DNA of 49,854 nucleotides, from IMG/VR virus record IMGVR_UViG_2529293239_000010, one strand, 5' to 3'. How positions within the stretch are numbered: the stretch's first letter is position 1; each line of letters starts with the position of its first letter. The translations under genes were made by a program, and so were the position numbers. The notes beneath the pieces are model-generated. The model searched no databases. It was not told the origin of the DNA and saw only the letters and a list, made by a program, of their open reading frames with translations. Source of the DNA: a virus. Lineage: Duplodnaviria > Heunggongvirae > Uroviricota > Caudoviricetes. Shown in pieces: positions 5,980 to 48,884 of this stretch.

Positions 5980-6456
5980 TTAAGTTCCTGTCTTGGTGAT
6001 GTTCTGGCTTTTCCGTTTTGATTCTTGATTTTTCAGATAGTTAGCTACCTTCATTTCCATTGCGGCAATGTAGGCGCGAACGTCATAATCAACCCAACTA
6101 GGCTCCGTAGCATTTCCAGATAAGATGAAAGCCACAATTGCTTTTTTTTCATCAGAGGCGGCTTGATAAAGGCTGTTTATGTCTAAAAGTTCACTTTTTG
6201 TATCTGAAGTGGATGGGGTTGGTATGGGGTATTCGTTAAGCCCCCAATGCTCTGGACCAACCACATCAGAAAAGAAACGCCATAGTTCTGGAAGTTTGTC
6301 TTTACTTATCGAACCTTTCTTAATCCAGTCATGGATTGATGGTGGTTGGACTTTGAAATGACGTGCGATTTCCGCCTTTGATTTGACGGCTCCTGATGCA
6401 ATTTTTTTGTTAATGGCCTGCTCTATCGCTCGGCCTAAGTCTTTACCACTAAGCAT
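5980..6456 (-). CDS. Prophage repressor, RacR-like (HTH, no S24 peptidase domain)
   Basis: 158-aa ORF divergent from a cro-like gene and flanked on both sides by copies of the same palindromic operator; HTH-like segment KSKAEIARHFKVQPPSIHDWIKKG. Confidence 0.75.
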   Translation of the reverse strand: MLSGKDLGRAIEQAINKKIASGAVKSKAEIARHFKVQPPSIHDWIKKGSISKDKLPELWRFFSDVVGPEHWGLNEYPIPTPSTSDTKSELLDINSLYQAASDEKKAIVAFILSGNATEPSWVDYDVRAYIAAMEMKVANYLKNQESKRKSQNITKTGT

Positions 6457-6508
6457 TGCTTAATAGTCTCCTATGCGCATCGCGTTAGGCAATCCCTACT
6501 CTCGATGT

Positions 6509-6553
6509 ATTAGGCATAGCCTATTGACAATTTCATTAGGCTAAGCCTAATAT
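6509..6553 (+). promoter_or_regulatory. OR operators with PR-like rightward promoter
   Basis: TTGACA (6525..6530) - 17 bp - TAATAT (6548..6553); operator palindromes ATTAGGCATAGCCTATT (6509..6525) and ATTAGGCTAAGCCTAAT (6535..6551) overlap -35 and -10; a third partial site lies near 6483..6499. Confidence 0.6.
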
Positions 6554-6580
6554 TGTTGCGTGTTTTTTGGAGTTCATTCG

Positions 6581-6904
6581 ATGAAAAAAGATAACTATTC
6601 ATTCAAACGAGCTTGTGCTGTTGTCGGTGGGCAATCAGCAATGGCTAGGCTTTTAGGTGTATCTCCTCCAAGCGTAAATCAATGGATCAAAGGTGTACGT
6701 CAGTTACCTGCTGAGAGATGTCCTGCGATTGAACGAGCAACAAAAGGTGGTGTCCTGTGTGAAGAACTTCGTCCTGATGTTGATTGGACATACTTACGAC
6801 GCTCGTCATGTTATTCGCAGAATATGTCGATGAAGCAACCAAATGACGAAAACGATCATACCCGAAGCATCAAGAGGCAAATGATTCATGAAAATCAAAC
6901 ATGA
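6581..6904 (+). CDS. Cro/YdaS-like HTH regulator
   Basis: Starts at ATG 6581 after GGAG; HTH segment QSAMARLLGVSPPSVNQWIKG; divergent from the repressor across the operator region. Confidence 0.65.
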   Translation: MKKDNYSFKRACAVVGGQSAMARLLGVSPPSVNQWIKGVRQLPAERCPAIERATKGGVLCEELRPDVDWTYLRRSSCYSQNMSMKQPNDENDHTRSIKRQMIHENQT

Positions 6905-7313
6905 GCACATCCGCATGGCGATGAATGCCTGGGCATACCCTGATGGTGAGAAAGTTCCTGCAGCTGAAATAGCCCGGACTTATTTCGAACTGGGGATGAC
7001 GTTCCCTGAACTGTACGACGACAGCCATCCGGAAGCCCTGGCCCGTAATACCCAGAAAATTTTCCGTTGGCTGGATAAAGACCCCCCTGATGCTGTTGAA
7101 AAAATGCAGGCTCTGTTACCGGCGATCGAAAAGGCGATGCCGCCTTTGCTGGTGGCCCGTATGCGCAGCCACAGTTCTGAATATTACCGTGAGATCGTCG
7201 AACGGAGGGATCGGCTGGTGAAGGATGTCGATGATTTTGTTGCGTCAGCGGTTGTTTTGTATGACCAGATGAATCGCGGCGGCCCGGCAGGGAATGCTGT
7301 GGTGATGCACTAA
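6888..7313 (+). CDS. YdaT-like protein (Rac-type immunity region partner)
   Basis: 141-aa ORF immediately after the cro-like gene, starting MKIKHEHIRMAMN; size and position match ydaT of the Rac racR-ydaS-ydaT locus. Confidence 0.55.
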   Translation: MKIKHEHIRMAMNAWAYPDGEKVPAAEIARTYFELGMTFPELYDDSHPEALARNTQKIFRWLDKDPPDAVEKMQALLPAIEKAMPPLLVARMRSHSSEYYREIVERRDRLVKDVDDFVASAVVLYDQMNRGGPAGNAVVMH

Positions 7314-7335
7314 AAGCACGGTGTTCGGGGGTTTT

Positions 7336-8298
7336 ATGAGCAGCAAGCTTCATGGTCTTGTCTGGGAAGGGTGCGCCTTCACCGGCATGATCTTATCCAG
7401 GGTGGCGGTTATGGCCCGTCTTGCAGACTACAGCAATGACGAGGGCGTGTCATGGCCTGCCATTGAAACTATCCGGCGTCAGATCGGTGCAAGAAGTGAA
7501 TCCACAGTGAAATCGGCTATTGCAGAACTGGCGAAAGAGGGCTGGCTGACGAAGGAAGAGCGTAAGGTCGGTGGGCGTAATGTAAGCAATATCTATCGGC
7601 TTAATGTGGAAAAACTCGAAGCAGCTGCGGCGGCGGCGCGTGAGTCATATAAACCGAAAAGAAAAATTAGCCCGGCAAAAAATGACCCGTTAACAGTTGA
7701 CCCGTCAAATATTGACCCCTCAACGGTTGACCCGTCAAATTTTGATGGATCAACTGTTGATAAAAAACTGCCGATTAGGGGGGCGATGATTGACCCCGAT
7801 CCGTCAGTATTAAAACCTGATCCGTCAGATAAAAGATCTTCTTGTCCGGACGCTTCGCAACCGGACCCGCAGACGGCTGAACAGGATTTTTTAACCCGAC
7901 ACCCTGACGCGGTTGTGTTCAGTGCGAAAAAACGCCAGTGGGGAAGTCAGGAAGATTTGGTGTGCGCACAGTGGATCTGGGGACGAATCGTGAGTCTTTA
8001 CGAGCAGGCGGCCAGCTATGATGGCGAGATCACTAGACCGAAAGAACCCAACTGGACAGCATGGGCCAATGACGTTCGCACAATGCGGATGCTGGATGGC
8101 AGAACTCACAGACAAATTTGTGAAATGTTTGGGCGTCTCCAGCGGGATTCGTTCTGGGTAAAAAACATCATGAGTCCGGCAAAACTCCGGGAAAAATGGG
8201 ATGAACTGGTTATCCGCCTGGGGCGTTCGCCTGCGCAGCGTTGTGTGAATCACATTTCTGAACCGGACACTGAAATACCGCCGGGATTCAGGGGGTGA
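7336..8298 (+). CDS. Replication initiation protein (lambda O-like role) with internal iterons
   Basis: N-terminal winged-helix-like region; gene contains five 15-bp iteron-like repeats that encode DPSNIDPSTVDPSNFD; followed directly by a DnaC-like gene. Confidence 0.7.
   Translation: MSSKLHGLVWEGCAFTGMILSRVAVMARLADYSNDEGVSWPAIETIRRQIGARSESTVKSAIAELAKEGWLTKEERKVGGRNVSNIYRLNVEKLEAAAAAARESYKPKRKISPAKNDPLTVDPSNIDPSTVDPSNFDGSTVDKKLPIRGAMIDPDPSVLKPDPSDKRSSCPDASQPDPQTAEQDFLTRHPDAVVFSAKKRQWGSQEDLVCAQWIWGRIVSLYEQAASYDGEITRPKEPNWTAWANDVRTMRMLDGRTHRQICEMFGRLQRDSFWVKNIMSPAKLREKWDELVIRLGRSPAQRCVNHISEPDTEIPPGFRG
7682..7760. repeat. Iteron array, probable phage replication origin
   Basis: Five tandem 15-bp repeats, consensus TTGACCCGTCAANNN, embedded in the replication initiator gene, as lambda ori lies within O. 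Confidence 0.55.
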
Positions 8299-8304
8299 CG
8301 TGTC

Positions 8305-38725: not shown

Positions 38726-39469
38726 ATGACACAGACAGAATCAGCGATTCTGGCGCACGCCCGGCGATGTGCGCCAGCGGAGTCGTGCGGCTTCGTGGTA
38801 AGCACGCCGGAGGGGGAAAGATATTTTCCCTGCGTGAATATCTCCGGTGAGCCGGAGGCGTATTTCCGTATGTCGCCGGAAGACTGGCTGCAGGCAGAAA
38901 TGCAGGGTGAGATTGTGGCGCTGGTCCACAGCCACCCCGGTGGTCTGCCCTGGCTGAGTGAGGCCGACCGGCGGCTGCAGGTGCAGAGTGATTTGCCGTG
39001 GTGGCTGGTCTGCCGGGGGACGATTCATAAGTTCCGCTGTGTGCCGCATCTCACCGGGCGGCGCTTTGAGCACGGTGTGACGGACTGTTACACACTGTTC
39101 CGGGATGCTTATCATCTGGCGGGGATTGAGATGCCGGACTTTTATCGTGAGGATGACTGGTGGCGTAACGGCCAGAATCTCTATCTGGATAATCTGGAGG
39201 CGACGGGGCTGTATCAGGTGCCGTTGTCAGCGGCACAGCCGGGCGATGTGCTGCTGTGCTGTTTTGGTTCATCAGTGCCGAATCACGCCGCAATTTACTG
39301 CGGCGACGGCGAGCTGCTGCACCATATTCCTGAACAACTGAGCAAACGAGAGAGGTACACCGACAAATGGCAGCGACGCACACACTCCCTCTGGCGTCAC
39401 CGGGCATGGCGCGCATCTGCCTTTACGGGGATTTACAACGATTTGGTCGCCGCATCGACCTTCGTGTGA
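38726..39469 (+). CDS. K: Tail tip assembly protein K (MPN/JAMM plus NlpC/P60-like)
   Basis: 247-aa ORF; HSHPGG JAMM-like motif; the long form from 38726 includes the N-terminal part of the MPN domain; overlaps I. Confidence 0.85.
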   Translation: MTQTESAILAHARRCAPAESCGFVVSTPEGERYFPCVNISGEPEAYFRMSPEDWLQAEMQGEIVALVHSHPGGLPWLSEADRRLQVQSDLPWWLVCRGTIHKFRCVPHLTGRRFEHGVTDCYTLFRDAYHLAGIEMPDFYREDDWWRNGQNLYLDNLEATGLYQVPLSAAQPGDVLLCCFGSSVPNHAAIYCGDGELLHHIPEQLSKRERYTDKWQRRTHSLWRHRAWRASAFTGIYNDLVAASTFV

Positions 39470-47251: not shown

Positions 47252-47835
47252 TGGCATTCAGAATGAGTGAACAACCACGGACCATAAAAATTTATAATCT
47301 GCTGGCCGGAACTAATGAATTTATTGGTGAAGGTGATGCATATATTCCGCCTCATACAGGTCTGCCAGCAAACAGTACCGATATTGCACCGCCAGATATT
47401 CCGGCAGGCTTCGTGGCTGTTTTCAACAGTGATGAGGCATCGTGGCATCTCGTTGAAGACCATCGGGGTAAAACGGTTTATGACGTAGCGTCAGGGGACG
47501 CGTTATTTATTTCTGAACTCGGTCCGTTACCGGAAAATGTTACCTGGTTATCGCCGGAAGGGGAGTTTCAGAAGTGGAACGGCACAGCCTGGGTGAAAGA
47601 TGCAGAAGCAGAAAAACTGTTCCGGATCCGGGAGGCGGAAGAAACAAAAAACAGCCTGATGCAGGTAGCCAGTGAGCATATTGCGCCACTTCAGGATGCT
47701 GTAGATCTGGAAATCGCAACGGAGGAAGAAACCTCATTGCTGGAAGCCTGGAAAAAATATCGGGTGTTGCTGAACCGTGTTGATACATCAACTGCACCTG
47801 ATATTGAGTGGCCTACGAACCCTGTCAGGGAGTAA
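47251..47835 (+). CDS. tfa: Tail fibre assembly protein Tfa
   Basis: 194 aa starting [54 protein letters not shown], lambda Tfa. Confidence 0.9.
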
Positions 47836-48614: not shown

Positions 48615-48884
48615 ATGCTGCCGCAGCATAGCGATATTGAAATAGCCTGGTATGCTTCGATACAGCAGGAGCCGAATGGCTGGAAGACCGTCACCACACA
48701 GTTCTACATCCAGGAATTCAGTGAGTATATTGCGCCACTGCAGGATGCTGTAGATCTGGAAATCGCAACGGAGGAAGAAAGATCGTTGCTGGAGGCATGG
48801 AATAAATATCGGGTATTGTTGAATCGTGTTGATACATCAACTGCACCTGATATTGAGTGGCCTGCAAATCCTGTCAGGGAGTAA
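48615..48884 (+). CDS. Tfa C-terminal-domain paralog or fragment (89 aa)
   Basis: C-terminal 53 aa nearly identical to the Tfa C-terminus; novel 36-aa N-terminus; AAGGGG Shine-Dalgarno before ATG 48615; lies within a direct repeat of the tfa 3' region. Confidence 0.4.

Follow-up and report, generated by a model that had tools for sequence, protein, structure and literature searches.

Lambdoid phages carry their replication origin, which consists of iterons and an AT-rich tract, in the middle of gene O (PMC7466680). Among the annotated origins, lambda has four iterons at 39034-39118 in O, phi80 has four gp15 sites in gene 15 and P22 has a rep_origin in gene 18, and all three lie directly after the DNA-binding domain of the initiator. 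The same position is occupied by an array of 15-bp repeats in the initiator gene of a Caudoviricetes virus, represented by 49,854 nucleotides of DNA (IMG/VR record IMGVR_UViG_2529293239_000010), the whole of which we refer to as the window. We consider it most probable that these repeats serve as the iterons, or initiator-binding part, of a lambda-type phage origin, situated inside the gene for the protein that would bind them. The lambda-type arrangement as such is already established; what the putative origin of the window adds is an HTH_36 domain and another type of iteron. The original prediction, made from the letters of the window alone, had taken the array for the probable origin by analogy with lambda ori within O. 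Comparison with relatives strongly supports this, and the parallel turns out to be one of homology, closer than had been thought. The general picture of lambdoid replication is unchanged by the finding. Nonetheless, the initiator is very common, yet no description of such an origin turned up in the searchable literature.

The repeat array and its conservation as DNA

Five tandem 15-bp repeats had been proposed at 7682-7760 inside the initiator open reading frame (ORF), and both Tandem Repeats Finder and the codon register of the gene show them to be real and correctly placed. Over 7662/7671-7745/7760, a period of 15 gave 5.0-5.1 copies with 71-73% matches, whereas a period-30 reading scored better (2.5-3.0 copies, 80-84% matches, scores 96-101). 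The proposed peptide repeat, DPS(N/T)(I/V)DPS, was also recovered, the array reading NDPLT VDPSN IDPST VDPSN FDGST VD (Table 1). The exact 12-mer TTGACCCNTCAA occurs three times, always within 7697-7738, and nowhere else in the 49.8 kb, against about 0.02 matches expected by base-4 arithmetic. The shorter core TGA-N4-TCA has 24 matches in the window, five of which fall within 7698-7827. When the peptide was held fixed and synonymous codons were drawn from the window's own usage, four dyads were observed against a mean of 0.21 expected (p = 2e-5), and 48 of 75 lag-15 identities against 35.4 (p = 5e-5). The site spacing of 15 bp corresponds to about 1.4 helical turns, and the dyads abut in either orientation, in two to nine or more copies. 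A dimer site could take either of two registers, TTGA-N4-TCAA or TCAA-N3-TTGA.

The initiator is widely distributed. A protein search returned 914 relatives, a scan of one genome per species gave 80 loci in Enterobacterales, and a near-full-length copy is present in 1514 of 5426 complete Escherichia coli genomes. Relatives occur throughout Enterobacterales, in phages of Shigella, Klebsiella and Yersinia, and also in some Shiga-toxin (Stx) phages. Every complete homologous gene (about 80, Enterobacterales) has a lag-15 repeat tract at the equivalent place, and the tracts fall into two classes. Class 1 (N-terminus MSSKLHGLVWEG) comprises the window together with Citrobacter, Edwardsiella, Erwinia, Mixta, Pantoea, Serratia symbiotica, Morganella and one sequencing-run assembly, and its units resemble TTGACCCCTCAA. 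Class 2 (N-terminus MSTKLTGYVWD...) comprises the Shigella phages SfII and SfIV and members from many genera, with units TCT GAC nCn TCA AAA that read S-D-x-S-K. Because unit orientation alternates in the class-1 arrays, giving a super-period of 30 bp, the lag-15 tract detector under-called them, and they were listed by codon register instead. In this register listing of 13 class-1 genes, homologues have a good site, TTAAGGGGTCAA, where the window has the degenerate TTAGGGGGGCGA.

The flank of the site follows the class of the DNA-binding domain, being TTGA-SSSS-TCAA in class 1 and CTGA-CnCn-TCAAAA in class 2. The neighbouring genes, in contrast, vary: class-1 initiators stand behind YdaS/YdaT, Cro/CP76, TumE or ANT genes, and before a DnaC-type loader (as in the window), a lambda-P-type loader or none. 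Therefore, the sites track the initiator's own DNA-binding domain. Given this covariation and the predicted fold, we infer that the iterons are sites for the winged-helix domain of the initiator itself. A locus of Citrobacter freundii (CP140470; L085, 2501-3960) has a class-1 initiator with a normal array followed by PerC, LexA_DNA_bind and RusA, and no helicase loader, either DnaC-type or P-type, adjoins the initiator there.

In the alignment, the protein lengths of close relatives vary in steps of five amino acids (aa), that is, by whole pentapeptide units. The homologue of E. coli OkiPb01696 (L088; 87% identity) has one unit fewer than the window, and at nucleotides (nt) 376-390 of its gene one unit has lost its TGA half-site through a change from GAC to GGC. 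These changes, along with length variants of 303-320 aa, show that units are added to the array, dropped from it and degraded within E. coli.

The array is conserved as DNA to a greater extent than as peptide. The two class-1 unit forms, TTGACCCCTCAA (I/V-D-P-S) and TTGAGGGGTCAA (V-E-G-S), are exact reverse complements; in frame, ATT GAC CCC TCA A.. reads I-D-P-S and GTT GAG GGG TCA AC. reads V-E-G-S. Homologues from Edwardsiella, Erwinia, Pantoea, Serratia and others have the two orientations in alternation, and the 12-bp site is preserved although D gives way to E, P to G, and S to L or P. Among the 299 units of class 2 (128 distinct sequences), Ser is encoded by TCT at unit codon 1 in 208 of 226 cases and by TCA at codon 4 in 262 of 295, and Lys is always AAA (212/212). 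Over the remainder of the same genes TCT and TCA account for 11% and 16% of Ser codons and AAA for 61% of Lys codons. We also compared codons pairwise at columns with a conserved amino acid, using the flanking domains of the same genes as a control for relatedness. Synonymous-codon identity was 0.85 in the linker against 0.44 elsewhere in class 1 (11 genes; Mann-Whitney p 5e-11) and 0.85 against 0.42 in class 2 (66 genes; Mann-Whitney p 2e-15), p-values that overstate independence since the compared sequences share descent. Per column, identity is about 0.3-0.55 in both folded domains and 0.9-1.0 over the linker.

The array and the conserved element that follows it, up to about 7870, encode aa 116-178, which is the disordered linker between the winged helix and the O-like domain. 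In an AlphaFold model of the initiator built on 68 homologues, aa 109-170 are predicted to be disordered, with a predicted local distance difference test (pLDDT) below 50, and such a linker would normally drift in sequence. The codon comparisons show that the array DNA is under purifying selection beyond selection on the peptide. The original prediction had named a peptide repeat kept without its DNA units as the outcome that would speak against it; what we found is the reverse, with the DNA units better conserved than the peptide. The locus would thereby offer a clean case of a cis-acting DNA element that sets the sequence of a disordered linker, in which the same site yields DPS or EGS according to its orientation.

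The downstream element and the reading as an origin

Conservation extends beyond the repeats. The stretch 7786-7873, ATG ATT GAC CCC GAT CCG TCA GTA TTA AAA CCT GAT CCG TCA GAT AAA AGA TCT TCT TGT CCG GAC GCT TCG CAA CCG GAC, is invariant at synonymous sites in both classes (to aa 177). The conserved element, of about 75 bp, is the same across iteron classes, C-terminal domains and loader types (DnaC-type, P-type or none). The GATC-rich region of low stability at about 7805-7870 is likely to be where unwinding occurs. In the gene, the 30 bp of lowest stability start 0-14 nt beyond the first GATCCGTCA for 64 of 80 homologues, and when applied to lambda, phi80 and P22 the stability computation picks the AT-rich region beside their iterons. 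The minimum in the window gene lies at 7737-7767 (-34.6 kcal/mol), with 7808-7838 next in value (-35.5 kcal/mol) and a gene mean of -43, and the stretches 7737-7767 and 7807-7841 rank in the lowest 2-4% of all 30-bp segments of the window. Additionally, CAGTATTAAAAGATCTTCG is common to the conserved segment of the window and the AT-rich region of phi80. For the adjacent AT-rich element that the original prediction had suggested looking for, this low-stability segment of conserved position is the candidate, although it is less A+T-rich than those of lambda, phi80 and P22. Since its values are less extreme than lambda's -31.6 kcal/mol, the unwinding element is plausible and positionally conserved, but not striking.

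Four GATC sites fall within 91 bp (7748-7838); three of them are in the conserved element, and two are kept in both iteron classes. GATC is under-represented over the window as a whole (127 sites versus 191 +/- 13 in shuffles). By window statistics alone the clustering is borderline, and we therefore put the weight on conservation across homologues. Some relatives (L084, L086) have a Dam-type methyltransferase gene just downstream. Matches to DnaA boxes are at chance level, and one that agrees at eight of nine positions (TTATCAACA, 7755-7763) is not kept in homologues. The imperfect inverted repeat that closes the element is placed like the right-arm palindrome of ori-lambda.

Replication from a lambda-type origin at this place might proceed as follows. 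The initiator would be made by transcription from pR, and its winged-helix domain, probably as dimers, would fill the TTGA-N4-TCAA sites spaced every 15 bp over 7682-7753, with weaker sites up to 7827. The resulting nucleoprotein complex would destabilise the A+T-rich, GATC-containing segment at about 7805-7841, and possibly also 7737-7767. The O-like C-terminal domain and the DnaT-like tail would then recruit the DnaC-type loader with host DnaB. Given that the 15-bp sites abut, stand in either orientation and vary in copy number, one speculative reading, which we regard as rather unlikely, is a complex that differs from the lambda O-some: the initiator would polymerise as a continuous spiral filament in place of phased wrapping, and the element of about 75 bp would act as a shared, loader-independent entry point for the helicase, gated by Dam methylation and SeqA.

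Besides the shared descent behind the p-values, several observations weigh against the array being an origin. The searchable literature turned up no experiments on any member of the initiator family; binding and origin firing are what we infer. Compared with lambda, phi80 and P22, the A+T-rich segment is weaker (-34.6 to -36.6 versus -31.6 to -33.8 kcal/mol per 30 steps), and the least-stable 30 bp, from 7737, overlap units 4 and 5 and continue into the degenerate part from 7756, but do not coincide with the conserved segment. Sites spaced by 15 bp are out of phase with the helix, compared with roughly 21 bp in lambda and phi80, and the complex is therefore unlikely to copy the wrapped lambda O-some. 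Moreover, the helicase loader of the window is a pseudogene. No description of the repeats themselves turned up in the searchable literature on this origin type, Rac oriJ, PF13730 or non-lambdoid Stx replication regions; two papers on the replication regions of Stx phages list modules of YdaT plus HTH_36 (Eru8, Eru11) and mention no iterons.

Some of these observations would suit sites that serve control only, with replication starting elsewhere. The protein bound, whether the initiator or some other one from phage or host, would act in autoregulation, as a roadblock, or for control of copy number and incompatibility by titration or handcuffing. The weak AT-rich element and a spacing unlike lambda's fit this, and plasmid iterons do have control roles. 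However, the 49.8-kb window has no exact or near-exact copy of the motif elsewhere, three annotated lambdoid origins lie at the homologous position, the motif goes with the DNA-binding domain of the initiator and not with the neighbouring regulators, and a positionally conserved low-stability segment adjoins the array. We therefore consider a control function without an origin improbable.

Alternatively, the repeats could matter as protein only, as a flexible linker of pentapeptides rich in proline and serine that changes by slippage, its likeness at the DNA level coming from duplication or concerted evolution. That the stretch is predicted to be disordered, that copy number shifts by 5 aa among close relatives and that window units 2 and 4 have one and the same sequence, as after a recent duplication, all agree with it. 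A linker of this kind leaves unexplained why synonymous sites are far more conserved there than in the folded domains, across genera, and why codons are specific to position (TCT at unit codon 1, TCA at codon 4). It also does not account for reverse-complement units that encode different peptides, DPS and EGS, or for the synonymous invariance of the non-repetitive stretch downstream, and we give it very little chance of being the whole explanation.

The constraint might instead act on a single-stranded structure, either a hairpin in the mRNA that slows or regulates translation between the domains or a hairpin in single-stranded DNA. The RNA of the array folds into a long hairpin at -32.2 kcal/mol (z -6.5, with no shuffle as good), and the arrays of homologues fold well too (z -2.7 to -8.7). 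Nevertheless, the pairing pattern varies between homologues, as would be expected if self-complementary units fold only incidentally. Conservation concerns the TGA and TCA bases at a strict 15-bp period and not complementarity, which the N4 spacers (CCCC, CnCn) lack within themselves, there is no Rfam family above its threshold, and the conserved non-repetitive segment would be left unexplained. A selected hairpin is accordingly a highly improbable cause. An Rfam scan of 6400-9200 at a permissive E-value returned only mir-250 (21 bits versus a gathering score of 58), due to the inverted repeats.

Mosaic breakpoints fall where the conserved element ends. Similarity of the window DNA to other phages starts there, at nt 478-511 of the gene. 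One chimeric protein (P0070) equals the window protein up to ...DKRSSCPD, continues with an unrelated middle domain and ends in the identical C-terminal tail, and many class-2 genes carry another C-terminal domain (ITDQAKQVLxHLN...) after the element. Although these observations, including the two different C-terminal domains of class 2, would suit a mere module junction, kept alike by homologous recombination that shuffles the N- and C-terminal halves or recently exchanged, we find this hardly credible as the sole cause, since recent exchange should raise identity in at least one flank whereas what is seen is a short island, about 100-190 nt long and near-100% identical at synonymous sites, with saturated synonymous sites (about 0.45) on either side, since the repeat part differs between the classes yet is conserved within each, and since a junction is compatible with an origin, the two not being mutually exclusive. 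For the array as an origin, the exchanges would mean that the DNA-binding domain, iterons and unwinding element move as one module, while C-terminal domain, tail and loader are exchanged. An origin at this place would also give those who study replication, incompatibility or induction in these prophages a precisely delimited fragment (about 7650-7880) to work with.

The initiator, the helicase loader and neighbouring genes

PHROG 391, 'replication initiation O-like', covers the initiator from end to end (E 2e-115), and NZ_CP033762 has a RefSeq coding sequence of 963 nt at the equivalent place. The winged helix is modelled with a pLDDT of 75-88 as helices followed by a beta-hairpin wing, and the C-terminal domain as helical with a pLDDT of 80-95. 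The nearest folds to the winged helix in a Foldseek search of the PDB are dimeric regulators of the ArsR/PadR/MarR type; this search returned generic winged-helix regulators and no initiator. The C-terminal tail gave weak phmmer matches to the DnaT chains 2ru8, 6aep and 9zbt (E 0.01-0.03), and a PDB sequence search with the initiator gave nothing beyond these. A C-terminal motif of DnaT has been reported in DopC (PMC5509034), and the window tail resembles the same motif. We propose that the tail may be the contact for the DnaC-type loader. Across the loci compared (window 8233-8295; gene ends of L084, L086 and L087; L002 4120-4977), the tail ...PDTEIPPGFRG accompanies DnaC-type loaders, and ...WNTPEGWRDVL and ...WNSPEAWENTL accompany lambda-P-type loaders. 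This pairing suggests that the last 20 or so residues of the initiator are a swappable docking peptide for the loader.

The DnaC-type loader named in the original prediction was borne out by Pfam (IstB_IS21) and by PHROG 50, 'DnaC-like helicase loader', which matches both ORF pieces. The gene is frameshifted, however: compared with an intact 747-nt allele in NZ_CP033762, it is broken by a 4-bp deletion after 8772 (GAAAAATTTTTACAGG to GAAAAATACAGG), 3' of the Walker A (P-loop) motif GKTGTGK. The window thus has no intact AAA+ loader gene beside the initiator. This deletion, if it is not an error of assembly, probably makes the replication module of the window copy defective. If DnaC of the host cannot stand in for the broken loader, the origin in this copy is probably a silent relic.

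The genes around the initiator follow a Rac-like early-right operon order, which is also annotated in E. coli chromosomes and in K-12 Rac. The promoter scan found only the pR-like promoter upstream, from which transcription would cross the initiator gene and the array, and a terminator scan found none. The early-right region also has a gene for QueH (epoxyqueuosine reductase, tRNA modification; 10434-11120, PF02677, E 1e-65). Genes for a Hok/Gef-family toxin (PF01848, 11301-11513) and a DUF968/HNH-type nuclease (11955-13010) follow downstream of the replication module. Two other repeats were seen in the window. Three overlapping period-21 tandem-repeat calls at 2260-2366 (74-77% matches) suggest a heptapeptide repeat and fall in a large RecE-like exonuclease gene on the minus strand, as placed by offset from an annotated relative. 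The 12-mer TTGATACATCAA stands at 47780-47791 and 48829-48840, 1049 bp apart, and hints at a longer duplication near the right end.

Table 1. Features in and around the initiator gene, with positions in the window
Feature	Position	Strand	Description
Divergent repressor-like gene	5980-6456	-	ORF list
pR-like sigma-70 promoter	6524-6553	+	TTGACA-18-TAATAT; consensus match only, 10/12
YdaS/P22_Cro (cro-like) gene	6560-6904	+	Pfam
YdaT gene	6888-7313	+	Pfam
Initiator gene	7336-8298	+	320 aa; ATG 7336; ORF lister starts at GTG 7321
Winged-helix DNA-binding domain	7336-7647	+	aa 1-104; Pfam HTH_36, 27.9 bits versus cut-off 25
Putative iteron array	7681-7755	no strand	Five head-to-tail 15-bp units in the initiator frame, each a pseudo-dyad TTGA-N4-TCAA
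Unit 1	from 7681, core 7682-7693		Degenerate, 5' end; AAT GAC CCG TTA ACA = NDPLT
Unit 2	from 7696, core 7697-7708		Near-perfect; GTT GAC CCG TCA AAT = VDPSN
Unit 3	from 7711, core 7712-7723		Near-perfect; ATT GAC CCC TCA ACG = IDPST
Unit 4	from 7726, core 7727-7738		Near-perfect; GTT GAC CCG TCA AAT = VDPSN
Unit 5	from 7741, core 7742-7753		Consensus match on opposite strand (TTGATCCATCAA); TTT GAT GGA TCA ACT = FDGST
Unit 6	7756-7770		Decayed remnant, A-rich, GTTGATAAAAAACTG; GTT GAT AAA AAA CTG = VDKKL
Two extra degenerate sites	7775-7786; 7790-7801		TTAGGGGGGCGA; TTGACCCCGATC; register listing of class-1 genes
Low-stability segment, candidate unwinding region	7805-7841	no strand	CAGTATTAAAACCTGATCCGTCAGATAAAAGATCTTC; synonymous invariance, stability profile
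Further dyad	7818-7827		TGATCCGTCA; inside low-stability segment
GATC sites	7798, 7819, 7835		In conserved element
GC-rich imperfect inverted repeat	arms 7837-7849, 7861-7873	no strand	GTCCGG...CCGGAC; closes conserved element
C-terminal domain	7879-8235	+	aa 182-300 (O-like domain also delimited as aa 178-297); homologous to lambda O and phi80 gp15
C-terminal tail	8233-8295	+	...RCVNHISEPDTEIPPGFRG; resembles DnaT C-terminus, common to Rac YdaU
DnaC/IstB-type helicase-loader gene	8305-9047	+	Frameshifted; two ORFs, 8305-8817 and 8796-9047
DUF1627, then DUF977 genes	from 9069		Pfam

Comparison with known origins

Theta-plasmid origins (RepA, RepE, pi) also have sites for a winged-helix initiator beside an unwinding region, in variable copy number. 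Their iterons are typically 17-22 bp, helix-phased and outside the rep gene, with DnaA boxes. The window does not fit a plasmid-type iteron origin, since the spacing is 15 bp, the array is within the gene and DnaA boxes are at chance level. The Rac genes YdaU and YdaV share with the window the order repressor, YdaS, YdaT, initiator, DnaC-type ATPase, and YdaU ends in the same kind of tail (...PDxxIPPGFRG; 13 of 19 residues identical), but its N-terminal domain is DUF1376. As a relative of the initiator YdaU was rejected, since only its last 19 residues match.

P22 resembles the window in having its origin inside the initiator gene after the DNA-binding domain, with CAGATCGGTAAAAC-like repeats and then an A+T-rich stretch. 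It differs in that the partner of its initiator is a DnaB-type helicase, gp12, and not a loader. The initiator itself, gp18, has no detectable similarity to that of the window and was discarded as a protein relative. phi80 is closer: aa 182-300 of the window initiator match gp15 with 36% identity (BLASTP, E 5e-26), the four gp15 sites are equivalently placed, and CAGTATTAAAAGATCTTCG..CCG stands just after them. Unlike those of the window, however, its sites are GAAAACGGGAA-like with a 21-bp spacing, and its loader, gp14, is annotated as P-like.

Lambda provides the fullest comparison. Like the putative origin of the window, that of lambda is placed mid-gene in the initiator, where a linker joins the DNA-binding and C-terminal domains, with pR upstream, and dyad-symmetric repeated sites are followed by a low-stability stretch and then by a GC-richer inverted repeat. 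The C-terminal domains are homologous, aa 182-300 of the window initiator matching that of lambda O with 39% identity (BLASTP, E 5e-26). The N-terminal domains differ, as lambda O, phi80 gp15 and P22 gp18 belong to Phage_rep_O and the window initiator to HTH_36; a published HHpred analysis gives HTH_36 for lambda O too (PMC5509034). The original prediction had called the replication module otherwise unlike lambda O/P. This stands for the HTH_36 domain and the DnaC/IstB-type loader in place of P, but the initiator is O-like and close homologues pair with P-type loaders. Given the homology of the C-terminal domain to O and gp15 and the equivalent position of the array, the statement is only half right. 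A further contrast lies in the sites themselves. Lambda has four 18-bp iterons about 20-24 bp apart and a stronger A+T-rich part, and Stx phages with a lambda-type ori in O have six iterons, whereas the sites of the window, of 12-15 bp, recur every 15 bp, and sites of this type stand head to tail in both orientations and in variable number.

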